This document shows positions 24,058 through 53,852 of a stretch of DNA of 64,000 nt, one piece after another. The position numbers and the translations under genes are program-made. Under the pieces are notes generated by a model. It searched no databases. It saw nothing but the letters and a program-made list of their open reading frames with translations, and had not been told where the DNA came from. Source of the DNA: Bauldia sp. (GTDB lineage: Bacteria; Pseudomonadota; Alphaproteobacteria; Rhizobiales; Kaistiaceae); the NCBI GenBank assembly GCA_020853895.1, contig JADYYB010000121.1, positions 470 through 64,469 of the forward strand, in the 5' to 3' direction. Numbering within the stretch: the first letter of the stretch is position 1; the number at the start of each line of letters is the position of its first letter.

Positions 24058-24071
24058 TTGATCTCGATCAA
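24058..24071. promoter_or_regulatory. FNR/FixK-type box TTGATCTCGATCAA
   Basis: Perfect palindrome. The centre is 70 bp upstream of the nnrU ATG (24135) and 84 bp from the moeA ATG (23980). Confidence 0.65.
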
Positions 24072-38000: not shown

Positions 38001-38798
38001 CTTGAACTCCGACGCGAAGTGCGCATCCGCGGTGCGGGTCATCGGCAGGTTGGAGCCCATCACGATCCAGTAGGCGCTCTGGTACCAGTCGGCCGACTCG
38101 TGAACGTCGGTCTGGTCTCCCCAGATCATCGGCATGATGTGCGGGAGGTCGTGATACCATTCGTAGAAGCTCAGCATCGTCCCGCCGAGCAGGTTGCTGA
38201 GCCGGTGGCCGGACAGGAAGCTCACCATGCTCATCGCCGGGATCGGCGAGAACGAGGCGAGGTGGTCGGGCCCATACTCCTTGATGGTGTGGATCTTGGC
38301 GGCGGCGATGATCTCGGTGACCTCCTCCCAGGTCGACCGGCGCCAGCCTGCCTTGCCGCGCGCGTTCCGGTAGGCCTTCGAGCGCTGAGGATCGTTTACG
38401 ATCGCAGCCCACGCCTCGACCGGTCCCTTCCCCGCCTCGCGCTCCGCCCGGTAGAAGTCGAGAAGGACGCCGCGCACGTAGGGGTATTTCGGGCGGACCG
38501 GGCTGTAGGGATACCAGGACGAAGATATGCCACGCTGGCAGCCGCGCGGTTCGTAGTTCGGGGTGTGGTCGTTGATCTGCGGCCAGTCGGTCTTCTGCAG
38601 CTCCCAGGTGATCATGCCGTCCTTGACGAACACCTCCCAGGAGCACGAGCCCGAGCAGTTGACGCTATGGCTGGTGCGCACCGAGCGGTCGTAGGACCAC
38701 CGGCGCCGGTAGAACTCCTCCCAGCCACGCGGCTCGTCGAGGACCCTGAACCACCGCGAGCCCTTCCCGTTGCTGCCATTCCCGTTGCGGTTGCTCAT
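35028..38798 (-). CDS. narG: respiratory nitrate reductase alpha subunit NarG
   Basis: 1256 aa. The FS0 motif HSVNCSGSCSW is present and NarG-type sequence continues throughout. Confidence 0.97.
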   Translation of the reverse strand: MSNRNGNGSNGKGSRWFRVLDEPRGWEEFYRRRWSYDRSVRTSHSVNCSGSCSWEVFVKDGMITWELQKTDWPQINDHTPNYEPRGCQRGISSSWYPYSPVRPKYPYVRGVLLDFYRAEREAGKGPVEAWAAIVNDPQRSKAYRNARGKAGWRRSTWEEVTEIIAAAKIHTIKEYGPDHLASFSPIPAMSMVSFLSGHRLSNLLGGTMLSFYEWYHDLPHIMPMIWGDQTDVHESADWYQSAYWIVMGSNLPMTRTADAHFASEFKYNGGKLVNLSPDYSDVTKFADLWVPVRPGTDAAFLMACIHVILQEFHINRRAPYFHEYIGKYTNLPFLVMLEQKGDRYLGGRFLRASDLNQYAGEENAEWKMPLFDKSGELRLPGGSLGFRWEKKKTGRWNLKQEDAVSGKPFDPLLTLADGKYEEVQVEFADFTHTFNTELGTTEGKGALARPSLRGVPTRVIETKSGPVHVTTAYDLLLAQFGINRGFSGQYPKNYDDASQPYTPAWQEQETGVDRNMAIRVAREWADTAEKTKGKCLFITGSGILHWYHGGTLTYRAEAVMGILTGCQGVNGGGFAHYVGTEKIRTFAAIGNLGGAADWGNVGRQMNSTSYFYFHTDQWRYDGMPLDPLWAPRAEIFPKKAKHSADMNMLALRNGWLPFFPQFDKKNPINVLKEARAAGCKTDEQVRKWVAGQFKAGKLDFALKDVDAPENHPKVMWIYRGNLIGTSMRGHEYNLKHMLGTHNNVLGEDRAEDLVKEIEWHEQAPLGKLDLIYNLNLRMDSSANYSDIVLPTAHWYEKYDLTCTDLHSFFHPFTPAHDPAWEAKHDWEIFRLIAAKVSELAKYYLPEPIEDLVMTALSTDTPDEMAQPFGELHDWKEEGTDPIPGKTFPNISIVKRDYSKIFDMYSSLGPKIAQPGGYGAKGIRGDISEAYEELKESYLVGEKDGRPAMDDARQVAEIILRISPESDGEISHKLFEGLEKQTGLKLAHLVEPEREVRHHFTDLISQPRRSITSPHWSAIESAGRTYCPWTLNIETLKPWHTLTGRQEIYYDHRMFRELGEDLPTYKPPVDMVKIGDVSSKDLQMKGAKLFRYITPHGKWSIHSMFWDTWQMLNLSRGGQVIWINDDDARQIDVRDNDWVEVFNENGISVVRAVVSNTVPRDMAIFYHSSERHIGVPFSSLARERGMTDLRGGNNNAPTRIMMNPATMVGGYANWTYWLNYQGTSPSERDCAVLIRKKPPERDGRKVIYQERELGIGG

Positions 38799-39691
38799 GA
38801 CGTGCTGTCCTCGCTGAGGGTGGCCGGCGCGCCCTGCTCGAGGAGGGCGCGGCGGAAGGCGTCGACGAATGGCCGGAAGTCGCGGACCGTGCCGTAGATG
38901 GCGACCACCGCGTTGCGGGTGCGGTCGTAGACGAGGTTGACCGCCGCGGTGCGCCCGATCGGGTGCTTGCTGGCGGCGCCGCCATGATCGGCCCAGTCGT
39001 CACGGAGCGCCTGGAGGGAGGCGTAGTAGAGGTCGGTCCTCGGGTGGACCTGCCACCAGATGCGAATCTCCCACTCGGGGATGCGCACGCTCGTCTCAAC
39101 GCTGTCGGCGGCCGAGTCGTGAGGGTCGATATCCCACTGGAACACCGGGAGCTCGCCCTCGTATGAACTGCCCGAGGCCATCGGCCCGTCGAATGGCTGC
39201 GGCGGCTCCATGCCGGGATGGCCCTCCGGCCGGTGACCGGCGTCGGTGACGTCGTTCCGGAGGACGTCCGGCTCGCCGACCATGCCCTCCTCGAGGAGCT
39301 CGGCCTGGAGCGGGTTCATCACCTCCGAGCCGGTCATCGCGCGGTCGATCTCGGCGTCCGAGTCGGCCTCGGCGAGGATCGGGCTCCGCGCCTTCTCCGC
39401 GCCATTATGCGGCGTCTTCCGAAGCACCATCTCCGCCTCCGCGAAGGGGAGCACCGTCACGATCCGGACCGGCCGGATCTCCGCTTCGGTGAGCGCGGCG
39501 CGAATGCCCTGCTCCATCTCCGCCACCTTCTTGTTGTTGGTGGAGTTGGGAGCGAAGCGGACCAGCACGCCCGACTCGTCGGTGACGATTTCCTTCACGA
39601 AACCCGCGGTCACGATGTCGCGGGAAAAGCCCGGATAGGGAACAGTCCGCAGCAACTCCCGAATTCGGTCCATAGAAACCACGCCTGTCAC
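38795..39691 (-). CDS. hypothetical protein: DUF59/MIP18-like N-terminal domain plus unknown C-terminal domain, translationally coupled to narG
   Basis: 298 aa. Its stop overlaps the narG ATG (ATGA). The N-terminus MDRIRELLRTVPYPGFSRDIVTAGFVKEIV...VLVRF resembles the Mrp/ApbC N-terminal (DUF59) domain. I do not recognise the acidic linker or the C-terminal 120 aa. The start is GTG 39691 or ATG 39673. Confidence 0.7.
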   Translation of the reverse strand: MTGVVSMDRIRELLRTVPYPGFSRDIVTAGFVKEIVTDESGVLVRFAPNSTNNKKVAEMEQGIRAALTEAEIRPVRIVTVLPFAEAEMVLRKTPHNGAEKARSPILAEADSDAEIDRAMTGSEVMNPLQAELLEEGMVGEPDVLRNDVTDAGHRPEGHPGMEPPQPFDGPMASGSSYEGELPVFQWDIDPHDSAADSVETSVRIPEWEIRIWWQVHPRTDLYYASLQALRDDWADHGGAASKHPIGRTAAVNLVYDRTRNAVVAIYGTVRDFRPFVDAFRRALLEQGAPATLSEDSTS

Positions 39692-40043: not shown

Positions 40044-40057
40044 TTGACGTGGATCAA
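40044..40057. promoter_or_regulatory. FNR/FixK-type box TTGACGTGGATCAA in the nar / nnrS-hemN divergent region
   Basis: Perfect TTGA-N6-TCAA. It lies about 124 bp from ATG 39920 (minus strand) and about 135 bp from GTG 40185 (plus strand). Confidence 0.7.
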
Positions 40058-40184
40058 GCCCGCCGGCCTGCAGAGTCCCTAAGAAGAGATTTCTGCATCG
40101 CGACCTGGCGGCGAGCTGGGCTACGAACCTGAGGTTCACGCCCGGCCGACTGCGTGCTGGTAGGTGCCACTGGAGAAGGAGCGC

Positions 40185-41381
40185 GTGCCGGCCCGTTCAA
40201 TCCCGATGCCGCGTGATCGGCAAAGCCTCGCCCACGTTCCGATCCTGACCTACGGCTTTCGCCCTTTCTTCCTCGGCGGCGCCGTTTGGGTCGTGCTCGC
40301 GATGGTGCTGTGGATCGGAGCGCTTGCCGGCGCATGGACCATCGCTCCCGGCTACGGCCTGATAGCGTGGCACGCGCACGAATTCCTGTTCGGCTATGTC
40401 GGCGCGATCGCGACCGGGTTCCTCCTTACGGCCATCCCCAACTGGACCGGGCGCTTGCCGGTCCGCGGCGGCCCCTTGCTGGCGCTCTTCGTGCTGTGGG
40501 CGATCGGGCGCGTGGCGCTCCTGGCCAGTCCGCTGATCGGCGTGCTGCCGGCGGTCGGCGTCGAGAGCCTCTTCCTGCCGGTCTTCGCGTTGGTCGTGAC
40601 GCGGGAGGTCGTCGCCGGCCGGAACTGGCGCAACCTCAAGACGGCGCTGCTGGTGGCGCTTCTGGCCCTCGGCAATATCGCCTTTCACGCCGAGGTCGTT
40701 CTGCGTGGCGAGGCGAGCTACTCGCTTCGGGCGGGCGCCACGGTGATCCTGATGCTGATCATGCTCGTCGGCGGCCGCATCGTGCCGAGCTTCACGCGCA
40801 ACTGGCTCGCACGGAGAGGTGCAACGACGCTGCCAGCCCCCTTCGGCCCGTTCGACATCTTCTCTATGGTCGCTGCCGCCCTCGCGCTCGTCCTCTGGAC
40901 TGCAATTCCGGATCGCTGGCCAACGGCCGTCGGTCTATTCGTGGCCGGCCTCGCGCAGCTGCGTCGATGGTCGAGATGGACCGGTCCTCCGACCTGGCCG
41001 GAGCCCCTCGTATTCGTCCTGCACGTGGCCTACCTGTTCGTGCCCCTCGGCTTCTTTGCCGTTGCGGCGTCGATCCTCTGGCCGTCCGCACTGCCCTTCT
41101 CCGCCGCCTTCCACGTCTGGACCGTCGGCGCGATGACGCTGATGACCCTCGCGGTCATGACCCGTGCCTCGCGCGGACACACCGGGCGGGCCTTGACGGC
41201 CGGGCCGGCCACACAAGCCATCTACCTCGCCGTGATCCTGGCCGTCGCGACCCGCCTGGCCGTCGCTCTCGCGCCCCAGCTGACCGGCAGTCTGCTGACC
41301 ATCTCCGGGTCCCTCTGGATCCTCGCCTTCGCGGGCTTCGTGGTCTTCTACGGACCGATGTTGTCGAGGCATGCGAGGTGA
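40185..41381 (+). CDS. nnrS: NnrS family haem/copper membrane protein
   Basis: Track ORF 40164..41381. GTG 40185 follows AAGGAG; ATG 40206 is also possible. The sequence reads GFRPFFLGGAVWVVLAMVLW...AWHAHEFLFGYVGAIATGFLLTAIPNWTG. Confidence 0.9.
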   Translation: MPARSIPMPRDRQSLAHVPILTYGFRPFFLGGAVWVVLAMVLWIGALAGAWTIAPGYGLIAWHAHEFLFGYVGAIATGFLLTAIPNWTGRLPVRGGPLLALFVLWAIGRVALLASPLIGVLPAVGVESLFLPVFALVVTREVVAGRNWRNLKTALLVALLALGNIAFHAEVVLRGEASYSLRAGATVILMLIMLVGGRIVPSFTRNWLARRGATTLPAPFGPFDIFSMVAAALALVLWTAIPDRWPTAVGLFVAGLAQLRRWSRWTGPPTWPEPLVFVLHVAYLFVPLGFFAVAASILWPSALPFSAAFHVWTVGAMTLMTLAVMTRASRGHTGRALTAGPATQAIYLAVILAVATRLAVALAPQLTGSLLTISGSLWILAFAGFVVFYGPMLSRHAR

Positions 41382-42766
41382 ACGCGCCGGCCGCCAAGAC
41401 TCCGGTCCGCGATGCCGATCTGACGGCTTTGGTGCTTCGCCACGATCGGCGCCTGCCGCGGTACACGAGCTACCCGACCGCCCCGCAATTCACTGCCGAT
41501 ATCGGTCGTCAGCATTACCGGTCCTGGCTCCGGTCCCTTCCTCGCGGCGCCGCGCTCTCCCTCTACATCCATATCCCTTTCTGCCACGAGCTCTGCCTCT
41601 ACTGCGGCTGCCACACCACCGCCGTGCGCCGGTACTCGCCGGTCGCAGCCTATGTCGAAACGCTCAAGAAGGAGATCGAGATCGTCGCGAGGCTCCTGGG
41701 GGAAGGAAGGCCCGTCTCGCATATCCACTGGGGCGGCGGCACGCCGACCATTCTCGCCCCGCTGCATCTCCGGGACATATCCCGCACGATCGCGCGCTAC
41801 TTCCACATCAAGACGGACGCCGAGATCGCGATCGAGATCGATCCGCGCTCGCTGACTCCGGCGCATGTCGAGGCCCTTGCAGCGATCGGCGTGAATCGCG
41901 CCAGCCTCGGCGTTCAGGATCTCGATCAGAAGGTCCAGCAGGCGATCGGGCGCATCCAGACATTCGAGCAGACGGCGGAAGCCGCCGACCGCCTCCGCCG
42001 GGCGGGAATAGGCGGCATGAACATAGATCTCATGTACGGCCTCCCTTACCAGACCGTCGACTCGGTCGCTCGCTCGACGGCGACCGCTTTGGACCTGGGA
42101 CCCGATCGGATCGCGGTTTTCGGTTATGCTCATGTTCCGTGGATGAAGCGGCATCAGGCGCTGCTCCCTGAAGCCTCCCTCCCCGGCACGGTGGAGCGGT
42201 TCCATCAGATGCAGGCCGCGAGCGAGACGATCAAGGCGGCCGGCTACGACGCGATCGGCCTCGACCATTTCGCGAAGCCGACCGATCCCCTTGCCCTGGC
42301 GCTGGCGGAGCGTCGGCTGCACCGGAACTTCCAAGGCTACACGACGGACGAGGCGCCGGCGATCGTTGCGTTCGGTGCCTCGTCCATCGGCCGTCTGCCG
42401 CAAGGCTACATCCAGAACGCCTCCCGCACGGTCGACTACAACGCCGCGATTTCGGCCGGGAAGCCGGCCATCGTGCGGGGGGTCGCGCTCTCGCCAGACG
42501 ACCGCTTCCGCGCGTCGGTGATCGAGCAACTGATGTGCTTCCTCACCGTCGACCTCCAGAGCGTTGCGCCGGAGCACGGCGCCGACGTGGATGAACTGCA
42601 GGCCGAACTGGCGGCCATCGACTGCCTAGCCGATGAGGGAATCGTGACGCGGCGCGGCAGCCAGATCACCGTTCCCGAACACGCCCGGCCCTTTCTCCGC
42701 AGCGTGTGCGCCGTCTTCGACCGATATCTGTCGCGAGAGGGAGCACGCTACAGTCGCGCGGTCTAA
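41378..42766 (+). CDS. hemN: oxygen-independent coproporphyrinogen III oxidase HemN (radical SAM)
   Basis: GTG 41378 overlaps the nnrS TGA (GTGA), in frame with track ORF 40286..42766. The sequence reads PRYTSYPTAPQF...LYIHIPFCHELCLYCGCH...HWGGGTPT. Confidence 0.95.
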   Translation: MNAPAAKTPVRDADLTALVLRHDRRLPRYTSYPTAPQFTADIGRQHYRSWLRSLPRGAALSLYIHIPFCHELCLYCGCHTTAVRRYSPVAAYVETLKKEIEIVARLLGEGRPVSHIHWGGGTPTILAPLHLRDISRTIARYFHIKTDAEIAIEIDPRSLTPAHVEALAAIGVNRASLGVQDLDQKVQQAIGRIQTFEQTAEAADRLRRAGIGGMNIDLMYGLPYQTVDSVARSTATALDLGPDRIAVFGYAHVPWMKRHQALLPEASLPGTVERFHQMQAASETIKAAGYDAIGLDHFAKPTDPLALALAERRLHRNFQGYTTDEAPAIVAFGASSIGRLPQGYIQNASRTVDYNAAISAGKPAIVRGVALSPDDRFRASVIEQLMCFLTVDLQSVAPEHGADVDELQAELAAIDCLADEGIVTRRGSQITVPEHARPFLRSVCAVFDRYLSREGARYSRAV

Positions 42767-43255: not shown

Positions 43256-43663
43256 TCAATGGTGTGGGTGTGCTCCGAGCCTCCCATGGAGACGCGCATC
43301 GTGGGTCTTCGAGTGCTCCGTGAACCAATGGTCAAGTTCACGTGCCAGTCGCCCCGAACTGCCGGCCGGGTCGGCCTCATAGCCGTCCATGATGTCGCGG
43401 ATCTCGTCCAGCAGCCGCTCGTGATCGTGCTTGTGCTCGGCGTACTCATCATAGTCGTGTTCGCGCATGAACCGCTCCTCCAGGGCGAAGTGGGAGGAGA
43501 TTGCCCGAAAGATATCGCCGAGAATCGCTTCGATCGGTCGCGCGCCCCCGCCCAGCTTCAGTTCGTCGTCAAGCCGGTTGATGAGGTCCATCATCTCCCG
43601 GTGCTCATGATCGACGGCATCGTTGCCGATCCGATAGTGCTCTTTCCATTCCATGAGAGCCAT
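43256..43663 (-). CDS. bacteriohemerythrin (hemerythrin-like metal-binding protein)
   Basis: 135 aa: MEWKEHYRIGNDAVDHEHREMMDLIN...HFALEERFM...EHKHDHERLL...HWFTEHSKTHD, carrying the H/HxxxE/HxxxH/HxxxxD ligand pattern. AGGAG lies 8 nt upstream. Confidence 0.9.
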   Translation of the reverse strand: MALMEWKEHYRIGNDAVDHEHREMMDLINRLDDELKLGGGARPIEAILGDIFRAISSHFALEERFMREHDYDEYAEHKHDHERLLDEIRDIMDGYEADPAGSSGRLARELDHWFTEHSKTHDARLHGRLGAHPHH

Positions 43664-43674
43664 CTTCTCTGCTC

Positions 43675-44217
43675 CTAGTTCGCCTGGATCGCCCCCACCC
43701 CCTCGTCGCCGTCGGAGGAGAAAACGAAGCCCCCCGCGCCTGTCTTGAAATCGATGACCGCATGTTGTGCCGGCGCCAGCACGACGTGCCGGCTCGCCGT
43801 GTAGTCGAAGCCTTCGGTGGCCGGGTTGTCTCGCATCCGCACTGCGATGTCATGTTCGCCCGCCATCAGCCGGAACTGCTCGTGGATGCGCGACGGGCCG
43901 TCACCGGCAACGCCTGAAGGCGGCAGCTCGCCTTCGAAGAGCCGAGCGCCGTCCACGCTGAGCTCGACGAATACAGGTGGACGCCTCCGCGGGCAGATCT
44001 CGGTGCGGCGCATGTTGGGCGGGAGGTCCGCGATCTCCTCCTCCGTGAGGGGACGGCAAGCCGCCCGTCTGTCGGCACCATGGCTGAACGACATCGTCAA
44101 GACCGCGGTATCGGCAGGGAGTGCCCGGAAGATCGGCTGGTTCGAGATCAGACTCGCGACGCTGATGACGAAAAAGAGAATGCCAAACTGGGCAAGGAGC
44201 CGGGCGCCGAGGATCAT
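43675..44217 (-). CDS. N-terminally membrane-anchored hypothetical protein, 180 aa
   Basis: Its ATG overlaps the upstream TAA (TAATG). It has a single TM (LLAQFGILFFVISVASLI) followed by a soluble domain of unknown family. Confidence 0.65.
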   Translation of the reverse strand: MILGARLLAQFGILFFVISVASLISNQPIFRALPADTAVLTMSFSHGADRRAACRPLTEEEIADLPPNMRRTEICPRRRPPVFVELSVDGARLFEGELPPSGVAGDGPSRIHEQFRLMAGEHDIAVRMRDNPATEGFDYTASRHVVLAPAQHAVIDFKTGAGGFVFSSDGDEGVGAIQAN

Positions 44218-45788
44218 TATCCTGCAACCCCCGTCTCAACCACGTCCGCCAGCTCCTTGGAGCGCAGTGACTGCCGTTCTGCGGAGGGTAGTCGCGAGAC
44301 GATCTCGGCAAACCGGGCAAGCTCTGTCTCTGCGCGGACAACCTCGAGCGGAGAGGCCCATATCTCTGTCAGCCTGTCCCGCGGCACGCGAGCCCTGAGA
44401 TAGGGGTCGCGCTCGCCGGCGAAACGCTCCTTGGTCCAACGAATCCCGAGCCGGTTGTAGCAGGCGTTCTCGGCACATCCCATCACGGCGACGCCATCCG
44501 CCAGGTCCTTGCTGAGGATGTAGTCGATCAGGGAAGGCGGAGACATAGCCACGCACGGCATCACGACCGCGTCCCGCTTCCGGTGCGCGGCCGCGCCATG
44601 GTCGCAGGCCAGGATCAATACGCGCGACTTGCCGGTGAGGTTTGCAGCGACCTTAAGCGTCTGCTCCCGCAATGCGCGGAGAGGAAGATCGGGCAGGTCG
44701 ATGCCGGTCCGCAGTTCCTCGGTGCGCCTGAAGGGGGTCGAGGATGGACAGGCGCCCATGCATACCCCGCACGAAACGCAAAGGTCCGGATTGACCGCCG
44801 CCTGGTGAGGAAAAGGCAGCGCGTCGGTCCGCGGAACGAGTTGGATTGCCTCGTAGGGGCAGTCCTCCACGCACCGGTTGCAGCCATTGCAGTGGGCCAG
44901 ATCGACCTCCGCCGCTTTCGGCCGGCGGAAGGGCGGCAACCACGGCAGGGCCGCCACCATGACGAAGACGGCCGCGAGAGTGGCCAGGATCGCCAGGCCC
45001 GGGACGGAATCGGGAAGCCCGTACAGCGGCAGAAACCACCAGTCCAGGCCTACCTCGGTCGGTATCGTCGCCAGATTTGCCGGACCCTGGCTGAGCGCAG
45101 GCCTTATTATCGCGACCGCTAGGATGGCAGCCAGGATAAGCCCGGCGAGCAGGCGCGGCGGGTTCACCCTGGGCCGCGAGACGCGCCTGATGTGAATCCA
45201 CATCGCCGCAAGCAGCATCAGCGGCACCGCGATATGCAGGAAAACGAGAAGCGTGAAGAAGCGGCTGCTCAGGCTTTGCGGCGTCAGGAAGTTCCGCTCG
45301 ATCGGCTCCCCGAAGATCGGCAGGACATCGAGCAGGCGCGCCGACACGACCGCCACATGCTGGGCCAGCTGGTCCCACACCAGCCAGTACCCGGTGATGC
45401 CGGCCACGTAGATGAACGCGACCAGAGGAACCCCGCTCATCCACGAGAACCATCGCGTCCCGCGGTAGCGATCGAGCGAGAATTCCCGAAGCACGTGGAG
45501 ACCGACCACCAACAGCATCACCTCGGACGCGTAGCGGTGGAAGCTCCGCGTGACCCCGGCGTGGAACCATGCGTTGCGTGTGATCCACTCGACCGATTGA
45601 TACGCCGCCTCGATGCCGGTGTCGAAGAACGCGAACAGGTAGACCCCGCTCACCGTCACGATCCAGAAGAAGAAGAACCCGAGCGCGCCAAGCTGTGAGA
45701 ACGGGTTGAGTGCAGGCGAGAAAAGCCGATCACAGCCCCGCTCGAGGTACATAAAGCCCTGGCGAAGAACGCGCTTGATCCGACTCAA
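44217..45788 (-). CDS. tri-domain redox fusion: dihaem cytochrome b (bc1/b6 N-terminal type) + 2x[4Fe-4S] ferredoxin + MvhD/FlpD-like domain
   Basis: 523 aa. There are two His pairs, each 14 residues apart (HRYASEVMLLVVGLH; LHIAVPLMLLAAMWIH), in cytochrome-b-like helices. CNGCNRCVEDCP and CVSCGVCMGACP follow. The C-terminal segment CVAMSPPSLIDYILSKDLADGVAVMGCAENACYNRLG is typical of the MvhD domain. The start is TTG 45788 or ATG 45752. Confidence 0.85.
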   Translation of the reverse strand: MSRIKRVLRQGFMYLERGCDRLFSPALNPFSQLGALGFFFFWIVTVSGVYLFAFFDTGIEAAYQSVEWITRNAWFHAGVTRSFHRYASEVMLLVVGLHVLREFSLDRYRGTRWFSWMSGVPLVAFIYVAGITGYWLVWDQLAQHVAVVSARLLDVLPIFGEPIERNFLTPQSLSSRFFTLLVFLHIAVPLMLLAAMWIHIRRVSRPRVNPPRLLAGLILAAILAVAIIRPALSQGPANLATIPTEVGLDWWFLPLYGLPDSVPGLAILATLAAVFVMVAALPWLPPFRRPKAAEVDLAHCNGCNRCVEDCPYEAIQLVPRTDALPFPHQAAVNPDLCVSCGVCMGACPSSTPFRRTEELRTGIDLPDLPLRALREQTLKVAANLTGKSRVLILACDHGAAAHRKRDAVVMPCVAMSPPSLIDYILSKDLADGVAVMGCAENACYNRLGIRWTKERFAGERDPYLRARVPRDRLTEIWASPLEVVRAETELARFAEIVSRLPSAERQSLRSKELADVVETGVAG

Positions 45789-45836: not shown

Positions 45837-46667
45837 TCAGAGACCCGCGTGCTTCTGCTCGAGCCGGCGATTGTTGCGCCACACCCGAAGGAGCAGGATG
45901 CCCATGATGATCAGGGAGATCGCCCCGATCACGATCCCGAATCCGAGGCTGTAGTCGATACGGTATGCGCCGGTCGTCGCATCGTAGACGGTACAGAGGA
46001 ACTTGACGCGTTCGAGCAATCCGTCCAGCGAGAGGGACCGCAAGCTCGATCCCAGGACCAGTTCCTTGAGGGGCTCCACGAAGACCTGCATGGGAAACTG
46101 ATCGCCGTAGACGTGGCGGTAGACACGACCGTCCGCATCCAGAATCGTCGTCCGCGTCAGATGGTCGAACCCGCCGGCGGTCGGAGCGTAGGAGAAGCCC
46201 ACCTCATCCAGGAAGGCTTCCATCTCCGCGGCCTCTCCGCCGGCCACTGTCCAGGCCGGCTCCCGCGCGATCCCCTGGACGCGTGCGAAGTCGGCAAGCC
46301 TCGCAGGGGTGTCGTTGCGGACGTCGAAGCCGATCGTCAGCACGTTGAACGCGTTGCTGCCCACCGCAGCGCGAGCACTGTCGACGGCGCGTCTCAACGT
46401 CTGCGTGGTCGCCGGACAGATCGTGTTGCAACTGGTGTAGACTAGGCTGATGACCAGCGGCCTTCCGCGATAGTCGGCAAGCGTGAGCGTCTCGCCATCC
46501 GATCGGAAGAACGTCCCGTCCACCACTCGGCCGATGATGGCCTCGCTCCTCGCGAGCGCGGCATCGCGGTCGATACGCGGCAGCTCCTCATGGCCCGCTG
46601 CTGCCGTCGAAAGGACAAGCCCTCCGATCACGACCCCAAGCCGGAAGCGATGATACCTTGTCCGCAT
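45837..46667 (-). CDS. SCO1/SenC copper chaperone with C-terminal TM segment
   Basis: 276 aa with an N-terminal anchor, the thioredoxin-like motif LVYTSCNTICPATT (CxxxC), and a C-terminal hydrophobic helix. Confidence 0.85.
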   Translation of the reverse strand: MRTRYHRFRLGVVIGGLVLSTAAAGHEELPRIDRDAALARSEAIIGRVVDGTFFRSDGETLTLADYRGRPLVISLVYTSCNTICPATTQTLRRAVDSARAAVGSNAFNVLTIGFDVRNDTPARLADFARVQGIAREPAWTVAGGEAAEMEAFLDEVGFSYAPTAGGFDHLTRTTILDADGRVYRHVYGDQFPMQVFVEPLKELVLGSSLRSLSLDGLLERVKFLCTVYDATTGAYRIDYSLGFGIVIGAISLIIMGILLLRVWRNNRRLEQKHAGL

Positions 46668-46706: not shown

Positions 46707-48431
46707 TTACCTGAAGAGCCAAACCTCCGATAGATACTTCCAATTTATGAAGTAGTAGAGCAGGAACGCTATGAAGAATACCGCCACCAAGGTGATCGTG
46801 CCGGGCAGCTTGACCGTATTGTAACTTCCATATTGACCCACCACTTTTGCGGCGGAGTGAAGTGGGAATGTCAGTGGGACCGCCTCCCTGTCGAGGCGCT
46901 TTCCGAACAGAACCGTTCCGACGGTGATGGCGATGTAGAGCAGCCCACCGATGGCGGCCAAGATGGCGGAAAGACCGTTGAGCGCCATCATGAGGAAGGC
47001 GCCGGGCGCGATTTCAAAGCCGAGATTGGCGTCGGCGAAGGTTATGTCCCAATGGCGGCGCGGCACGCCCAGGGTGCCAGCGCCCATCATGAACAGGGAT
47101 ATCCCCGCAGCGCCTATACCAAAAATGTAAGGCTGGTACTTGGCCAGCTTCGGCCAGATGATGTCCCGCTGGAAGATCAGCGGAAGCACATAATAAGTGA
47201 TGGCCATGAAGGCGAGGGTCGTTCCGGCCACGACAGTGCCGTGGAAATGGCCCGGAGCGTAGAGCGTATTGTGCATCAGCACGTTGAGCTGCTCCGTTCC
47301 CAGCACGACTCCCGAGATGCCCCCGATGAAGCCGAACAACACCAGCGAAAGGAACATGCCCGAGAAGGCCGGGTTACCCCAGGGAGCCTTGCGCAGCCAT
47401 TCGAACACCCCCTTGGTGAACCCGTTGCGACGCTGAGCCGCCTCGATGGCGCCCGGCACTGTGAGTCCGTGGATCATCGAGGCGAGGACGGCGAGATACA
47501 TGAGGTAGCTCGCGTTGACGATCTTCCAAGCGGAGCTGAGGCCGGGTTCGGCGAGCAGATGATGGGCGGAAGCGAGCTGCAGGAAGAGGATGTAGAGGAA
47601 GAACGCGGTTCGGCTGACCTTCTCCGACAGGGGCTTCGCCCCCACCGTGAGCGCGGCGATCAAATACCAGACGCTGACATGAGCCGCGACGTTGACCTGC
47701 TGGGACGAGTGTCCCATCCCCCACCAGACGACCTTGTACATCAGGGGATCGATGTAGGGGATGAGACCGAGCGACCAGAGAAAAGTCGGAACGAGGATGA
47801 TGGCTCCCGAAGCCAGCGTGAATACCGCGATGATTGCCGCTGTAAGCGCGCCAAAGGTAACGAGTGGAATCGATCCCTGATAGGTGCGCTCCTCACGGGC
47901 AATCACCAGCGTTGCGAAGAACACCCCCAACGCCAGCAGCGCTCCAACCGCGAAGAGGATAAGTCCCAGATAGAAGTGAGGGGCGGCTTCCATCGGCGGA
48001 TAGGAGGTGAACATCACGCTCGAATTGCCTTGCAGCACCGCTACATTGGCAGTGATTGCGCCCAGTACCATGAGCACGAAGGCCAGCCAGGCTATGCGCG
48101 GCGCAGCGAGACGCGAACTGAGGATCACGGCGGACGCGAAGTAGAGCACCGCCACTTCGAAGAAGATGATCCAGAACAGGAGAACGTTGGCGCCGTGGCC
48201 GGTCAGGAGCAGATAGAACCAATCCGCTGGCAGCAGATGCACGGCCGGCCAGCGGGTCAGCGCCACGAGAAGGCCCATGAGCCCACCCCAGGCCAGAAAG
48301 ATCACCGCAACGACCGCATTCGCCTTGATCAATTGCTGCGCTGCAGCCTCGACCCGGAATCCCGTGTAGCCGCAAATCCTCGAGACGACGTCCCGGCGGG
48401 CGCCACTAATCGGAATGTCGGCAGCGGTCAT
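46707..48431 (-). CDS. haem-copper oxidase superfamily subunit I, B-family(ba3)-like, lacking the cross-linked Tyr
   Basis: ATG 48431 overlaps the subunit II stop (ATGA). All six His ligands are present (TGHG; GMGH; SAHH; PGHFH). By eye it aligns along its length with T. thermophilus ba3 subunit I, as recalled from memory. Helix VI reads GHSSQQVN in place of GHPIVY. Confidence 0.9.
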   Translation of the reverse strand: MTAADIPISGARRDVVSRICGYTGFRVEAAAQQLIKANAVVAVIFLAWGGLMGLLVALTRWPAVHLLPADWFYLLLTGHGANVLLFWIIFFEVAVLYFASAVILSSRLAAPRIAWLAFVLMVLGAITANVAVLQGNSSVMFTSYPPMEAAPHFYLGLILFAVGALLALGVFFATLVIAREERTYQGSIPLVTFGALTAAIIAVFTLASGAIILVPTFLWSLGLIPYIDPLMYKVVWWGMGHSSQQVNVAAHVSVWYLIAALTVGAKPLSEKVSRTAFFLYILFLQLASAHHLLAEPGLSSAWKIVNASYLMYLAVLASMIHGLTVPGAIEAAQRRNGFTKGVFEWLRKAPWGNPAFSGMFLSLVLFGFIGGISGVVLGTEQLNVLMHNTLYAPGHFHGTVVAGTTLAFMAITYYVLPLIFQRDIIWPKLAKYQPYIFGIGAAGISLFMMGAGTLGVPRRHWDITFADANLGFEIAPGAFLMMALNGLSAILAAIGGLLYIAITVGTVLFGKRLDREAVPLTFPLHSAAKVVGQYGSYNTVKLPGTITLVAVFFIAFLLYYFINWKYLSEVWLFR

Positions 48432-48982
48432 GGCTGAGCTCCGCCCTCGCTCGCGAGTACGATGATCCGGCCGAGCATCTGATGATGGCCGATCCCGCAA
48501 TACTCATTGCAGACGATCCCGTACTCGCCCGCTTCGGTCGGGGTCACTGTGATCACGTGCTCGTATCCCGGGTGGACTTGGATGTTGATGTTGGTCGGCA
48601 GCAACGAGAACCCGTGCTGCCAATCGGCGGACGACAGATGGATTCGGTAGCTCTCGCCCTCGCGAAGCTGCAGGATCGGCCACCATTCCCAGAGCCGCGC
48701 GAGCATATAGGCATCGCCGCCGACCGGGGGCTGCACGACCGGCACGCCCGCCTCCTCGCCAACCTGATACTGCCCTGCGAAGTCGTAGACCTTCTGCTCG
48801 TACTCGCCAGGGGTTACGCGATAAGTTTCATTGGAGAGGTTCTGGCCGCCGAAGAAGTGCCACGCCACCATGAAGAAGAACATGAACAAACCCCAAAGGA
48901 ACGCGATCGCGATCCAAATGAGTTCGACACGTTCGATCGGCTCGTTCCACCAGACTCGCTTCTCGGGTGAAGCAATAGTCAC
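48428..48982 (-). CDS. haem-copper oxidase subunit II with intact CuA site
   Basis: 184 aa. The GTG start follows AGGGAGG. One TM segment. The cupredoxin motif H-X34-C-X-E-X-C-X3-H-X2-M is present (DWQH...CNEYCGIGHHQM). Confidence 0.9.
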   Translation of the reverse strand: MTIASPEKRVWWNEPIERVELIWIAIAFLWGLFMFFFMVAWHFFGGQNLSNETYRVTPGEYEQKVYDFAGQYQVGEEAGVPVVQPPVGGDAYMLARLWEWWPILQLREGESYRIHLSSADWQHGFSLLPTNINIQVHPGYEHVITVTPTEAGEYGIVCNEYCGIGHHQMLGRIIVLASEGGAQP

Positions 48983-49005: not shown

Positions 49006-49170
49006 TCAGCCCAGGGGAATGGACACGATCTCCATCACGCCCCAGATGATGTAGAGGACGGTGGGGATCGTGATGCCCAGCGTGAGAAGCAGGAAGGGGT
49101 TGTCCAGGATCCGCTGCATCGTCGGGATCCGATCCTCCTCTGCTCGCGTCGAATCAGGCCGGTCCGTCAT
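49006..49170 (-). CDS. 54-aa single-TM peptide (subunit IIa-like position)
   Basis: ATG 49170 is preceded by GGAGG. The sequence is MTDRPDSTRAEEDRIPTMQRILDNPFLLLTLGITIPTVLYIIWGVMEIVSIPLG. The longer track ORF starts at a TTG with no RBS. Confidence 0.45.
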   Translation of the reverse strand: MTDRPDSTRAEEDRIPTMQRILDNPFLLLTLGITIPTVLYIIWGVMEIVSIPLG

Positions 49171-49434
49171 TCCCGCACCTCCATGGCCGCCCTCCCAGGG
49201 GCCTTGATTCCATTTTATGGCACCACAGGTTTTTGAGGCCCGCAACCAAAAAATGGGACGGGCGCAGTGAAACTACGACTTGACAGGCCACGATTTTGAC
49301 CAAGGCATCCCTGACGCATGGCCTCATCGGAACGTCCTAGTATAAGCTTATGATGATTGAACCTGGCTTCTCGCCAAGTGGGTGGGCTGCGGGAACACTG
49401 GCGAGGCGTGGGCGTATTGTATGGAGGAACTCCC

Positions 49435-49884
49435 ATGAACCATCGAAATCTTGCCACTGTCGTCGCGTTCGTGTTGCTCCTGGGCTTCTCGTCTTCCCAG
49501 GGCGAGGCACAGGAGGCCGACCCCGCGCTGAGGAGTGCCATAGCGGCGGCCGATCCCGGCGCAGGTCAGAGCGTTTCGACGCGCTGTTCCGCGTGTCACA
49601 CCTTTGACGAGAACGGGCAGAATAGAGTCGGTCCCAATCTGTACGGGGTCGTTGGACGGGGGATCGGGGGGAAAGAGGGCTTCAACTACTCGCCACCCTT
49701 TCAGCAGCTCATGGCCGCCGGCGACACCTGGACCTTCGAGAGGCTTGATGGCTTCCTCGCCGATCCCCGGGGCACGATCCCAGGCACCCGCATGGCTGTT
49801 CCTGGAATCACCGATGAAGCGGATCGTCACAACTTGGTCGCCTATCTGCGAACCCTGTCTGCCTCCCCAGTCCTGCTCGAATAG
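49435..49884 (+). CDS. class I c-type cytochrome (c2/c550-like), periplasmic
   Basis: ATG 49435 follows GGAGG. It has a signal peptide, then CSACH, GPNLYGVVGR and a distal Met in GTRMAV. It is divergent from the oxidase operon. Confidence 0.85.
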   Translation: MNHRNLATVVAFVLLLGFSSSQGEAQEADPALRSAIAAADPGAGQSVSTRCSACHTFDENGQNRVGPNLYGVVGRGIGGKEGFNYSPPFQQLMAAGDTWTFERLDGFLADPRGTIPGTRMAVPGITDEADRHNLVAYLRTLSASPVLLE

Positions 49885-50651
49885 CCAGCCTCCGGCTTGA
49901 ATTGCCGGAGCGGCACGGCACGGTGGCCTCTCCGGAATTGAGGGGTCGGCGGATTGACGATCAGGCGCTGCGTTTGGGAGAGGGGACCGCCGGGCAAGGG
50001 GAGAGTTGCCCGGCGGTCAAACGAAGGATCTTCCTTGTCCGTGCGGAGTCCTTCGCGGTTCTGACGACGCCGTGGCAACAGCCAGCGGCGCTTTCGGCTC
50101 GGCAGGTCAATCAGGGTCCGAACGGGCTGAACCGTCGCTTCGAGAGAGCATAGGCTGCTTCCCCCAAATCTCGGTTCAGTCTCTTTCGATCTTGAATCGA
50201 TGCCAGGTCGTCGGGCTCTGGCCACCCTCCCCAAGAAGGGCGCTCCCACTCATCCTGGTCAGGGCATGCTTGCACGGTGCCACCGCGCGACGTGGGCTTC
50301 CCCGAAGGCCATCTCGCAGGTACTGAACGACTCTCTTTCTGGGGCATGGCAGGCCCTAGACTGGGCAGGATGGCCGTCCGCGCATTGATCCCGGTCAATC
50401 CTGAGATCACGTCGCGAAAGAGGTCAGCCCACCGAGAGGCCTCGTCGGTACGGCTGGGCGGGCTCGAGGACTCTCCCGCCCGCTCATGCCCAGCGCCGAG
50501 TGTCGTCGATCGCTCCTACCGGCGCGAAGAAGATCCTGGGCCGCATCCCGACCGTCCAGACTTTGGCAGATCAAGGGCGCCACCTCGACGAGGACCTGGC
50601 GCCGGCACGGCGGGCACGAAGCGATGATCCGCGCCCCACGGAGGGGCCGGG

Positions 50652-51118: not shown

Positions 51119-51132
51119 TTGAGCTAGATCAA
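51119..51132. promoter_or_regulatory. FNR/FixK-type box TTGAGCTAGATCAA
   Basis: Perfect TTGA-N6-TCAA in an AT-richer intergenic patch. The centre is 66 bp from ATG 51059. Confidence 0.65.
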
Positions 51133-51383: not shown

Positions 51384-52349
51384 TCAGTCTTTGCTCCAGA
51401 TCAAAGACTGGGTATCCCTCGTCGGACTCGCCGGTCGCGAGAAGCGGCATGTCTCGCGGAGACCGCGCTCGCTCGAGGCGCCTGCGCCCGCCCCCAGCAG
51501 TCGCTCGCCGCGCTGCGCGGCAAGTCTTCGCAGCGTCACCTTTGCCGCGGACCTGCCAAAGAAATGATAGCCCGAGCCGCCCTCGGCGAGGACGTCGAGG
51601 AAGGCATCCGGATCGGTGATGCGCACGCCGCCGAGGATATGACAGCCGCGCTTGAAGAACGCATCCGGGATCATGGTGACGGTTGGGCCAACCACCACGA
51701 TCCGCGCCGAGGGCTTCGCCAGCGCGATCAGTCCTTCGAGCGTATCGTTGACGAGCGTGGTGCCCGTGACGATCAGGACGTCCGCCAGAGGCACCACTTC
51801 GGGAGCGCGCTCGGCCTCCCGGAAATGAGGCATCTCATGCGGTTTCAGGGCGGCGGGATCCTTTTCCAGCACGAAGTGCCTGGCGCCGATCCTGCGCAGC
51901 TCGCGCATGAAGGGCACGAAAGCTCCGACGACAACAACCGTGTCGGCCGGCCGCACCCCAGCCGCCTCGAAGGCATCGAGGCCCTCGACGGAGTCGAAGC
52001 CCCTTCCCCCTCCCCGCCGCTCCGCGACGAGCTGCGCAAGGGCGTTCAGCGTCGCGATGCCGACCGCCCGGCGGACGCCCGTCTGACCGGCTGCTTCGTC
52101 GAGAAGACCGTCGGCGCGGCGCCCGACCAGCTTGCCTGGAAACGGCATCGCCATCGCCGAGGACGGGCAGCACACCGCCTCGGGGATTTCCTTGATCGGT
52201 GTGGCGCAGCTTCCGGCGTGCCCGGTCGAGAGTTTCACGCCGGTGAAGAAGAGGCCGATCACGGCCCGCTCGACTGCGATCTCGTCAAGCGCGGGTCCCA
52301 GCTCATCGCGGACGATCCCGGCTGTCGTCTCGAGAATAGTGTCTGTCAC
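51384..52349 (-). CDS. DUF4213/DUF364 (putative heavy-metal chelation, Rossmann-like) protein
   Basis: 321 aa with a GTG start: VIGLFFTGVKLSTGHAGSCATP...VVVVGAFVPFMRELR...DVLIVTGTTLVNDTLEGLI...IVVVGPTVTM. Confidence 0.7.
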   Translation of the reverse strand: MTDTILETTAGIVRDELGPALDEIAVERAVIGLFFTGVKLSTGHAGSCATPIKEIPEAVCCPSSAMAMPFPGKLVGRRADGLLDEAAGQTGVRRAVGIATLNALAQLVAERRGGGRGFDSVEGLDAFEAAGVRPADTVVVVGAFVPFMRELRRIGARHFVLEKDPAALKPHEMPHFREAERAPEVVPLADVLIVTGTTLVNDTLEGLIALAKPSARIVVVGPTVTMIPDAFFKRGCHILGGVRITDPDAFLDVLAEGGSGYHFFGRSAAKVTLRRLAAQRGERLLGAGAGASSERGLRETCRFSRPASPTRDTQSLIWSKD

Positions 52350-52551: not shown

Positions 52552-52797
52552 ATGACCGAGGTCGTGTCAAAGCCCGTTGTTCTGACCAAGATGTGCGAGC
52601 TGCATGGTATCGACATGCCGAAGGAAGGAGAGTTGGCAGAGCGCTTCAGCCGAGCATTCCCATCCGCCAACTACGACCAAAATGCCGGAGAGTGGCGCAT
52701 GGTCTGGAAGAAAGGCGCATACGCCGAATCCAAGGCGCGTCTCGAGGCCTTCTTCGCCGACAACGGGGTTGAGATCCGTCAAGTCGACAGATGCTAG
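52552..52797 (+). CDS. hypothetical protein, 81 aa
   Basis: ATG 52552 is preceded by GGAGGAAAG. Its stop overlaps the permease start. The sequence begins MTEVVSKPVVLTKMCELHGIDMPKEGELAERF.... I recognise no family. Confidence 0.5.
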   Translation: MTEVVSKPVVLTKMCELHGIDMPKEGELAERFSRAFPSANYDQNAGEWRMVWKKGAYAESKARLEAFFADNGVEIRQVDRC

Positions 52798-53852
52798 AGA
52801 ACCCCGCCGCTGTCCGCCTTCCGATCCGAGGCGGCAGCTCTGCCCGCACTCGTGACCGGGCGGTGCTGGCTGCGCTGGTGTTGCTGTTGGGGGCGCTGGC
52901 GGTCTTGTCGATAGGAATGGGCCGCGTACCCATTCCGCCGGAACGCATCGTCGCCATCCTCGGCTCCAGATTGTTGCCCATCGAGCCGTTCTGGACATCC
53001 GGCGAGGCGCTCATCGTCCAGAATGTGAGGCTGCCGCGCATCCTGGCGGCGATCATGGTCGGGGCAGCGCTCGCCGCCGCGGGTGCCGCCTACCAGAACC
53101 TCTTCCGCAATCCGATCGTGTCGCCCGACATACTGGGCGTGTCGGCAGGAGCCGGCTTCGGCGCGTCGCTCGCGGTGATGCTCAATCTGGGCGTCGTCGG
53201 CGTCCAGCTATCGGCGTTCGGCACCGGGCTCCTGGCGGTTGTGCTGTGCTACCTGATCGGCCAGGCCATCAATCGGCATTCGCTGATCGTTCTCGTGCTG
53301 GTGGGCGTTGTCATCGGCGCCTTCTTTCAGGCCATGATCTCGGTGCTGAAGATCGTTGCCGACCCGGTGGACGTCCTGCCCGTCATCACTTTCTGGCTGC
53401 TGGGCGGTCTGAACAAGACCACGCCGGATGACCTGCCTGTGGTTGCGGCGATCATCGGAGCGGGTCTGGCGCTGCTCCATGCGCTGCGCTGGCAGGTGAA
53501 TGTCATGAGCGTGGGCGAGGAGGAAGCCCGCAATCTCGGTATCAATGTCCGGCTGATCAGCTCCTTGCTCGTGCTCGCCGCCACGCTGATGACGGCCGCG
53601 GCGGTCTCGATCGCCGGTATCGTCGGCTGGGTCGGGCTGGTGGTCCCGCATATGGCGCGCATGCTGGTGGGGCCGAGCTTCGAGCGGATGTTCCCTGTCG
53701 CAATCGTCGTTGGCGCGCTGTTCGTGCTGCTGGTGGACGACTTCGCCCGCGCCGCGAGTTCGATGGAATTGCCGCTCGGCATCGTCACCAGCGTGATCGG
53801 CGCGCCGCTGTTCATCGCCTTGCTGATGCGCGCCCGGACAGCGTGGGCGTGA
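52791..53852 (+). CDS. FecCD-family (type II, BtuC/MolB-like) ABC importer permease
   Basis: 353 aa: RLPRILAAIMVGAALAAAGAAYQNLFRNPIVSPDILGVSAGAGFG...TTPDDL...SIAGIVGWVGLVVPHMAR. Confidence 0.9.
   Translation: MLENPAAVRLPIRGGSSARTRDRAVLAALVLLLGALAVLSIGMGRVPIPPERIVAILGSRLLPIEPFWTSGEALIVQNVRLPRILAAIMVGAALAAAGAAYQNLFRNPIVSPDILGVSAGAGFGASLAVMLNLGVVGVQLSAFGTGLLAVVLCYLIGQAINRHSLIVLVLVGVVIGAFFQAMISVLKIVADPVDVLPVITFWLLGGLNKTTPDDLPVVAAIIGAGLALLHALRWQVNVMSVGEEEARNLGINVRLISSLLVLAATLMTAAAVSIAGIVGWVGLVVPHMARMLVGPSFERMFPVAIVVGALFVLLVDDFARAASSMELPLGIVTSVIGAPLFIALLMRARTAWA

Follow-up and report, generated by a model that had tools for sequence, protein, structure and literature searches.

A cytochrome b/iron-sulfur fusion protein without a Rieske partner in an eNOR-type gene cluster of Bauldia sp.

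Nitric oxide (NO) reductases of the eNOR type are reported to rank with the most common NO reductases in nature and to be a source of N2O (PMC11214002); in the published work, eNOR is regarded as an enzyme of two subunits. The enzyme purified from R. marinus reduces NO with artificial donors, i.e., N,N,N',N'-tetramethyl-p-phenylenediamine (TMPD) plus ascorbate, and the main text of the main eNOR paper leaves unmentioned the type of gene with which this work is concerned (PMC11214002). Here we describe one such gene on a 64,000-nucleotide stretch of DNA of Bauldia sp. (assembly GCA_020853895.1, contig JADYYB010000121.1, positions 470 to 64,469; the whole of this stretch is called the window below). 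Its product, referred to as the target, joins in one polypeptide a dihaem cytochrome b, two [4Fe-4S] ferredoxin motifs and an MvhD/FlpD-like domain. The target family is widespread and is found almost always in an eNOR-type gene cluster.

Proteins of this build have been described before. Kao & Hunte 2014 (Genome Biol Evol, PMC4122944) defined a ‘PDWF-FeS’ clade in which cytochrome b carries 4Fe-4S and MvhD domains, with members in Magnetospirillum magneticum and Turneriella parva and no Rieske protein in the cluster, and reported an Alicycliphilus cytochrome b fused to a ferredoxin and a flavin oxidoreductase. Matched by description, the target resembles this clade in its whole cytochrome b, in the Asp that comes second in the Qo motif and in its architecture, but the motif itself is LDWW (LDWF in the family) and not PDWF. 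That study drew no link between the clade and eNOR operons, hemerythrin or the partner protein that we call p180, and gave no function (PMC4122944); M. magnetotacticum does have an eNOR (PMC11214002). In Ferrigenium straubiae, the eNOR operon contains a haem o synthase gene, sco1 and a pair of cytochrome b/[Fe-S] genes, of which one has FAD/NADH domains; their proteins were found in the proteome, and the authors speculate on an eNOR supercomplex coupling NO reduction to NAD+ reduction (bioRxiv 10.64898/2026.01.22.701106). By its description this operon (eNOR subunit II, eNOR subunit I, haem o synthase, sco1, cytochrome b plus [Fe-S]) is of the same type as ours. Both the architecture and the eNOR neighbourhood of the target are, then, already known, and we claim no new architecture.

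A Qo-type cytochrome b with an iron-sulfur end

The target and its parts are placed as follows:

44217..45788, minus strand: target, 523-amino-acid cytochrome b / 2x[4Fe-4S] / MvhD-like fusion protein, TTG start at 45788 and TAA stop at 44217-44219
45177..45728, minus strand: helices A-D, cytochrome b6-like four-helix bundle, residues 21-204 (Pfam, b6 profile, invariant His)
44919..45176, minus strand: part resembling cytochrome b6f subunit IV, residues 205-290, with helix E, an ef loop carrying LDWW, and helix F (PetD match)
44736..44912, minus strand: ferredoxin-like domain with two [4Fe-4S] motifs, residues 293-351 (Pfam Fer4, Fer4_7 and related models)
44289..44636, minus strand: MvhD/FlpD-like alpha/beta domain, residues 385-500, with Cys C395/C412/C438/C443 (Pfam FlpD, profiles, fold)

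An earlier note, made from the letters of the window, had read the protein in these three parts (dihaem cytochrome b, two [4Fe-4S] motifs, MvhD/FlpD-like domain), and Pfam, profile and fold matches agree with it; the five strings it quoted are all present, and a domain scan with Pfam recovers Cytochrome_B, two copies of Fer4, and FlpD. In the N-terminal half, HRYASEVMLLVVGLH spans H84 to H98 and LHIAVPLMLLAAMWIH H185 to H199, with a spacing of 14 residues in both pairs, as expected for the bc-type cytochrome b families (Pfam PF00033 / PF13631), whose His pairs on helices B and D are 13-14 residues apart; H84/H185 are assigned as ligands of the haem at the periplasmic side (bp) and H98/H199 of that at the cytoplasmic side (bn). 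Pfam Cytochrome_B covers residues 21-200 (E 3.5e-21), and the family profile matches the cytochrome b6 6rqf_I (E 9e-24) in an alignment that covers RS.HRY and G.tGY.L.WDQ, including the conserved cd-loop motif of the Qo pocket, GYWLVWDQ, which falls on GYSLPWDQ.

The cytochrome b assignment of the earlier note, correct for the N-terminal part, was nevertheless incomplete, as it overlooked the helices E and F and their PEWY-type motif. Residues 205-300 are homologous to subunit IV of b6f (phmmer against PetD 2zt9_B, E 5e-5), and ‘LDWWFLPLY’ aligns on PetD ‘PEWYLYPVF’. LDWW is a variant of PEWY with Leu for Pro and Trp/Phe for Tyr; among homologues the ef-loop Asp249 is invariant, Trp250 is conserved, and the consensus motif is LDWF. 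Because of these subunit-IV-like helices and the PEWY-type motif, the target is best described as a whole Qo module that lacks its Rieske protein, and not merely as an N-terminal cytochrome b. The AlphaFold2 (AF2) model (pLDDT 72, pTM 0.66) contains helices A-F and can be superposed on the cytochrome b of bc1 along about 290 columns (Foldseek). Hydropathy and the positive-inside rule (13 Lys+Arg in inner loops against 4 in outer ones) give six transmembrane helices with both termini in the cytoplasm, i.e., the orientation of b6/subunit IV. By sequence and model, the target carries a complete Qo-type quinol pocket facing the periplasm but stops after helix F. No Rieske domain or cytochrome c1 gene was found in the operon or among the recurrent neighbour families of 80 related loci, and the target is therefore not a bc1/b6f complex.

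The same topology puts the iron-sulfur half in the cytoplasm, as the earlier note had presumed and as is predicted here. Two CxxCxxCxxxCP motifs, CNGCNRCVEDCP (residues 300-311, ligands C300/303/306/310 followed by P311) and CVSCGVCMGACP (residues 337-348, ligands C337/340/343/347 followed by P348), are invariant and lie within two Pfam Fer4 matches over residues 293-350. FlpD (PF02662) matches residues 406-500 and at 27.6 bits passes its gathering score (22.3), and GVAVMGCAENACYNRLG corresponds to residues 432-448. In NCBIfam, residues 290-504 align to HdrA2 569-775 (its Fer4x2 and MvhD end). The family profile also matches the C-terminal ferredoxin domain of HdrA (5odc_A, E 3e-11), whilst the C-terminal profile matches MvhD (9sw2_D, E 5e-9; 5odc_D, E 1.3e-8), with C412, C438 and C443 on MvhD cysteines and C395 outside the aligned stretch. 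As a single sequence, the MvhD-like region gave no match to solved structures, and only family profiles did; compared by Foldseek with MvhD chains, the AF2 model reaches TM-scores of 0.68-0.70. The four-Cys site is presumably a [2Fe-2S] site.

That this is one real gene leaves hardly any room for dispute. Long spurious open reading frames (ORFs) are common on both strands of a window with a GC content of 64.5%, and a chance frame, or a frameshift fusing two genes (a possibility that the earlier note itself had raised), could have been suspected. Yet 44217-45788 is a single ORF of 523 codons without interruption, on the minus strand (the earlier note gave no strand), its codon-position GC (0.65/0.47/0.81 for GC1/GC2/GC3) follows the pattern of real genes in the window, and Pfam, PDB and fold matches span the entire length. 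A word-indexed search gave more than 3600 full-length homologues of like domain order and length among the matches listed, the best 120 of which are all 512-555 amino acids long with an identical Pfam set, and an exhaustive HMMER search of 50%-identity representatives gave 3459 matches, with 507 clusters at E<1e-30. In 24 aligned sequences, down to 26% identity, H84/H98/H185/H199, the eight Fer4 cysteines and C395/C412/C438 are invariant, and C443 is kept in at least 90%, so that all four haem His and twelve cluster Cys are conserved, eleven of the latter without exception. Since homologues share domain order and invariant ligands down to that identity, the frameshift alternative is excluded, and the chance of any artefact is negligible. 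The start is taken as the TTG at 45788 and not the internal Met13, because L8, R9, F12 and E16, in the stretch of residues 8-16, are invariant in close homologues.

Public database names of the family are uninformative or misleading: homologues are called ‘cytochrome b N-terminal domain-containing protein’, ‘hydrogenase iron-sulfur subunit’ or ‘ferredoxin/coenzyme F420-reducing hydrogenase delta subunit’. Although its domain is MvhD-like, the target is not a hydrogenase subunit, contrary to the second of these names, which is the one used at NCBI. Its top NCBIfam match, ExtP (the cytochrome b of selenite/tellurite operons), scores 104 against a cut-off of 290 bits, and the target is not a member of that family.

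p180 and the eNOR-type gene cluster

The earlier note missed a partner of the target, which in many lineages is fused to it:

43675..44217, minus strand: p180, 180 amino acids, one N-terminal transmembrane helix and a periplasmic beta-sandwich (AF2, conservation, fusions)

The p180 start overlaps the target stop (TAATG), and from this sequence arrangement the two genes are judged to be co-transcribed and translationally coupled. Many target homologues of 685-710 amino acids carry an extra C-terminus homologous to p180, and this fused form gives 5608 matches on its own; p180 is an obligate partner of the target. AF2 models it with pLDDT 90 as one transmembrane helix and an eight-strand beta-sandwich, a domain that must be periplasmic because it is joined via one helix behind the cytoplasmic MvhD-like domain. 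His46, Cys54 and Cys75 are invariant, including in a distant homologue from Nitrospinota. No Pfam or NCBIfam family was found for p180, which is annotated ‘hypothetical’, and Foldseek returned generic beta-sandwich matches (TM-scores 0.3-0.4) with no specific fold match.

The remaining genes of the operon, and a divergent neighbour, are:

49006..49170, minus strand: single-transmembrane ORF of 54 amino acids at the operon head, candidate small subunit (conserved in related loci by tblastx/tblastn)
48428..48982, minus strand: subunit II, cupredoxin of 184 amino acids with the CuA motif CNEYCGIGHHQM (weak Pfam COX2/Cupredoxin_1; NCBIfam CoxB 1.3e-11)
46707..48431, minus strand: eNOR-type subunit I of a haem-copper oxidase (HCO) (Pfam COX1, E 6e-64)
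45837..46667, minus strand: SCO1/SenC copper chaperone of 276 amino acids (Pfam SCO1-SenC, E 2.4e-13)
43256..43663, minus strand: bacteriohemerythrin-type di-iron protein of 135 amino acids without signal peptide, the operon's last gene (Pfam Hemerythrin, E 7e-11)
49357..49884, plus strand: divergent class I cytochrome c with CSACH (Pfam Cytochrom_C, E 1.7e-9)

The probable ATG of subunit I at 48431 overlaps the subunit II stop (ATGA), and its maximal ORF reaches 48500. Its closest solved relatives are the B-family ba3 oxidases, but at the position of their cross-link Tyr237 it has Gln (H-x3-Q against H-x3-Y). In the published diagnostic for this position, Gln marks eNOR, Asn sNOR/CuANOR and Asp gNOR (PMC8756737 Table A4), and it is on this basis that we class the oxidase as eNOR-type. 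The motif GHSSQQ[IV]N is present in 66 of 67 related loci, with the HH and H..H.H motifs also conserved and the three CuB/FeB His and two haem His kept; in GHSSQQ[IV]N the CuB His is followed by two Gln, and an Asn stands two residues past the Tyr position. The CuA in subunit II and the Sco gene in the operon are further traits of eNOR clusters. An sNOR cluster (norSY-senC-orf1), which the gene order might suggest, is ruled out by Gln, and not Asn, in subunit I. The divergent cytochrome c is a candidate for the conventional donor to CuA. The hemerythrin resembles bacteriohemerythrin 4xpw_A (E 3e-10) and is of the O2-binding type; it is also the operon's sole soluble cytoplasmic product. The 54-amino-acid ORF, mostly unannotated or ‘hypothetical’ elsewhere, could be a small third subunit comparable to subunit IIa of ba3 oxidases.

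Related loci were scanned with one genome per species and genes counted by tblastn with the window proteins; where a count falls short, it is mostly because a contig ends. A relative of the target is present in at least 515 species genomes, and the 80 closest loci, which were surveyed for gene content, belong to Alphaproteobacteria and some Gammaproteobacteria; as only these closest loci were taken, the survey leans to the former. The earlier note's placing of the gene in an HCO/NOR-type operon, which we refine to eNOR-type, is borne out by co-occurrence: subunit I lies near the target in 70 of the 80 loci, subunit II in 61, Sco directly upstream in 79, p180 in 77 and hemerythrin, directly downstream, in 70. 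The small ORF directly precedes subunit II in 58 of 61 loci; of 66 loci, 53 have a haem O synthase gene separating subunit I from Sco, and 18 of 80 have a homologue of the class I cytochrome c close to the cluster. Where the flank is long enough, essentially all loci keep one order on one strand, i.e., small ORF, subunit II, subunit I, (haem O synthase/UbiA), Sco, target, p180 and hemerythrin; in our case haem O synthase (UbiA/CyoE) is missing from the operon and from the whole 64-kb window. Gammaproteobacterial loci with the fused form have the same cluster, hemerythrin included. Further recurrent neighbours are NirS, a NosR/NirI-like protein, Crp/FNR regulators, cytochrome c, ApbE and NnrS. 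Amongst cultured carriers, Defluviimonas sp. SAOS-178_SWC has the same order on a plasmid, with subunit I mis-named ‘cbb3-type’ and the small ORF annotated as a 60-amino-acid hypothetical protein.

More distant loci depart from this pattern. In a Nitrospinota metagenome-assembled genome (locus L084, 3290-5380), a fused homologue of 696 amino acids has mreC on one side and a DNA glycosylase gene on the other, and within 8 kb there is neither an oxidase nor a Sco or hemerythrin gene; because it stands alone, the family is not strictly tied to eNOR. Locus L086 has the fusion gene adjoining Crp and the haem A synthase CtaA, and in L088 a second COX1, CtaA and DUF2249 continue the cluster in hemerythrin's place. 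In L089 (4617-10121) a NuoF-like gene (Complex1_51K/NADH_4Fe-4S) lies between two paralogous cytochrome b-Fer4-FlpD-p180 fusions inside an HCO cluster, with a separate Rieske/cytochrome b pair on the other strand, an arrangement hinting that the MvhD-like end can be NADH-linked. CtaA is rare, with 3 cases among the 80 close loci and none in the window; a NuoF-like subunit is absent from both the window and the 80 close loci.

The setting in the window is one of denitrification. NnrS and HemN genes converge on the eNOR operon and a NarGHJI cluster adjoins; FNR/Crp-type palindromes (TTGAT-N4-ATCAA, at most one mismatch) number 14 in the window against 0.64 expected. Examples lie at 24058-24071, 40044-40057, 50385-50398 and 51119-51132, one of the boxes standing between the nar operon and nnrS, whilst inspection by eye of the divergent eNOR/cytochrome c promoter (49170-49357) for an FNR/NnrR box gave poor matches only. 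Several other features of this neighbourhood are recorded in passing:

40164-42766, plus strand: the listed 826-amino-acid ORF (40286-42766) is not one gene, but NnrS at 40164-41381 (plus strand, other frame) followed by HemN at about 41430-42766 (plus strand)
31262-32764, minus strand: NarI (residues 3-210) fused to a C-terminal part with two cytochrome c domains, 500 amino acids in all, an unusual fusion which closes the narGHJ cluster
38795-39691, minus strand: FeS_assembly_P-domain protein of 298 amino acids, directly upstream of narG and overlapping its start
51384-52349, minus strand: DUF364/DUF4213 ‘heavy-metal chelation’ protein, next to an FecCD-type ABC transporter (52791-55661, plus strand)
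56149-58563: a further molybdopterin oxidoreductase

Direction of the electrons

The domain and fold matches, the conserved haem His, cluster Cys and Qo-pocket residues, and the six transmembrane helices support a wire across the membrane. Most likely, the target is not a core catalytic subunit of eNOR, nor is it needed for catalysis, given that the purified R. marinus enzyme is active with TMPD/ascorbate (PMC11214002) and that a cytochrome c gene adjoins the operon. The reading which we tentatively prefer, and hold to be quite possible, is that of a quinol-linked transmembrane wire. Quinol would be oxidised at the periplasm-facing pocket with release of protons outside, and electrons would pass through haem bp, haem bn, the two [4Fe-4S] clusters and the [2Fe-2S] cluster to a soluble cytoplasmic acceptor, in a redox-loop geometry like that of NarI/NarH, here serving NO/O2 handling. 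In this genome the acceptor would most likely be the co-transcribed bacteriohemerythrin, whose di-iron site would thereby be kept reduced for the binding or consumption of O2 or NO; in other lineages it may be an NADH-binding flavoprotein.

Two observations on the hemerythrin argue for this reading, namely that it is the only soluble cytoplasmic protein of the operon and that it is of the O2-binding type. The NuoF-like gene of L089 and the FAD/NADH fusions of Ferrigenium and Alicycliphilus suggest that soluble redox partners exchange electrons with the cytoplasmic end, and the denitrification context (NnrS, HemN, NarGHJI and FNR-type boxes in the window; NirS, NosR-like and Crp/FNR in related loci) supports a role in NO handling. 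The earlier note had likewise proposed a wire, from the quinone pool or the oxidase to a low-potential Fe-S partner in the cytoplasm; the anatomy fits a wire from the quinone pool, with the Qo motifs GYWLVWDQ and LDWW conserved, whilst its ‘low-potential’ and ‘bifurcating’ qualifiers found no support. The note also linked MvhD domains to heterodisulfide reductase (Hdr) and bifurcating modules; the domain is MvhD-like, but no Hdr, HdrA-type flavoprotein or [NiFe]-hydrogenase partner was found in the window or the 80 related loci.

Several points weigh against the quinol-linked wire. Electron direction, cluster potentials and the acceptor's identity are all conjectural, and the AF2 model is of moderate quality only (pLDDT 72). 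Quinol oxidation at a bc-type Qo site without a high-potential first acceptor is difficult, and NarI-type sites differ in build. Hemerythrin is swapped in distant loci, for a second COX1 and CtaA in L088, for CtaA in L086 and for nothing in L084. The link to the oxidase is steadier than that to hemerythrin, which suggests that eNOR, or its biogenesis, may be the primary partner instead. Finally, the model leaves the obligate periplasmic p180 without a role; indeed, the role of p180 is unexplained by any of the three readings considered here.

A second reading is bifurcation of the Qo type within an eNOR supercomplex, close to both the earlier note's reading and the speculation of the 2026 preprint. 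The first electron would go to a high-potential periplasmic acceptor standing in for Rieske/c1 (CuA of eNOR, possibly via p180) and the second, low-potential one via bp, bn and the Fe-S clusters to ferredoxin, NAD+ or a flavoprotein, so that NO reduction pays for reverse electron flow. The retention of the entire Qo architecture with its invariant ef-loop motif speaks for it, as do the Rieske-like topology of p180 (one transmembrane helix and a periplasmic beta-sandwich, obligate and often fused), the eNOR operon as the constant genomic partner across classes, the NADH-linked partners of some lineages and an MvhD/HdrA-like wire typical of bifurcating systems. However, p180 has no recognisable redox cofactor site: only one His and two Cys are invariant, and the latter may simply make a disulfide, and fold searches gave generic matches. 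Having moved against the membrane potential, the low-potential electron would still need to reduce a carrier near -320 mV. Heterotrophic alphaproteobacteria, with no obvious need for reverse electron flow, make up most hosts of the 80 loci, and the gene for a cytochrome c donor lies nearby. We regard this as unlikely. One version of it, in which target and p180 dock on eNOR as a Rieske-less Qo module that bifurcates quinol between the very high-potential NO/N2O couple (via CuA) and the cytoplasmic Fe-S clusters, strikes us as quite improbable; if true, denitrifying NO reduction would directly yield low-potential reductant (reduced hemerythrin, ferredoxin or NADH) in the cell, and quinone-based electron bifurcation would have a new outlet pair.

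Electrons could also run outwards. In this case cytoplasmic electrons (from an NAD(P)H-flavoprotein, ferredoxin or reduced hemerythrin) would enter at the [2Fe-2S] end and exit via haem bp, much as in transmembrane metalloreductases of the FRE/STEAP/cytochrome b561 type, either to feed eNOR independently of bc1/cytochrome c, to reduce Cu(II) or thiols on p180/Sco, or to support the O2-dependent synthesis of haem A for eNOR assembly. Membrane potential favours this direction, and the FAD/NADH-domain fusions mirror NAD(P)H-driven dihaem reductases. The target gene stands after the assembly genes (haem O synthase, Sco) and not among the structural ones, p180 has a Sco-like set of ligands (two Cys and one His, all invariant), and CtaA directly follows the target gene or its partner in L086 and L088. 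Moreover, both haem sites of eNOR hold a modified haem a, CtaA is O2-dependent (PMC11214002), and an O2-binding hemerythrin is co-encoded. Against this, a simple outward wire has no need of a strongly conserved quinol pocket, metal binding by p180 is putative only, the adjacency of CtaA is limited to 3 of the 80 close loci and to none in the window, and the Nitrospinota homologue is alone and far from any oxidase. An outward wire or biogenesis factor thus described seems to us somewhat unlikely. All three readings are kept alive because the cytoplasmic partners vary (hemerythrin, NuoF-like, FAD/NADH fusions, CtaA) whereas the link to eNOR is constant.

Significance and comparison with known systems

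Whichever way the electrons run, the target has a Qo site of the bc type that does without a Rieske protein and connects to the cytoplasm, which makes it a test case for the control of semiquinone chemistry at Qo sites and, in addition, for how NO reduction is tied to energy conservation, to NO/O2 scavenging or to enzyme biogenesis. The survey shows that, across Alpha- and Gammaproteobacteria, eNOR genes are accompanied by those for a cytochrome b/Fe-S protein, a membrane-anchored p180-type beta-sandwich protein and a bacteriohemerythrin, on a scale of at least the 515 species genomes mentioned above and thousands of metagenomic proteins. This is a well-delimited, widely distributed type of protein attached to an environmentally important enzyme, with cultured hosts in Defluviimonas, Bradyrhizobium, Chelativorans and Magnetospirillum.

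In sequence and fold, the best relatives of the target are cytochrome b6f (b6 plus PetD) and the cytochrome b of bc1, with which it shares the four-helix dihaem bundle, the 14/14 His spacing, RS.HRY, G.tGY.L.WDQ, helices E/F and the PEWY-type ef loop. It differs from them in having no Rieske protein, no cytochrome f/c1 and no haem cn cysteine, and, instead of helices G/H or a recognisable Qi/Qn site, it has an Fe-S domain on the n-side. That domain resembles MvhD and the C-terminal ferredoxin domain of HdrA (Mvh-Hdr, HdrA2) as a three-cluster relay, with three of the four target Cys on MvhD Cys. However, the first Cys pair of MvhD is one Cys in the target, the domain is attached to a membrane cytochrome, and there is no HdrA flavin domain, HdrBC, hydrogenase or methanogen-type partner near it.

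By gene order, the operon recalls norSY-senC-orf1 (sNOR) of ammonia oxidisers, with a CuA subunit, HCO subunit I, SenC and an extra ORF, but the sNOR enzyme has Asn at the Tyr position where that of the window has Gln. By function, the closest analogy is with NarI-NarH, HdrE-HdrD and QmoC/QmoB, in which a quinol site and two stacked b haems are likewise wired to cytoplasmic Fe-S clusters, QmoB carrying an MvhD-like domain too. The fold of the cytochrome b is unrelated (NarI-type as opposed to bc-type), and the catalytic subunit is known in those systems whereas none is identified for the target; the target would nonetheless share with them the geometry of a quinol site joined through two b haems to the cytoplasm.

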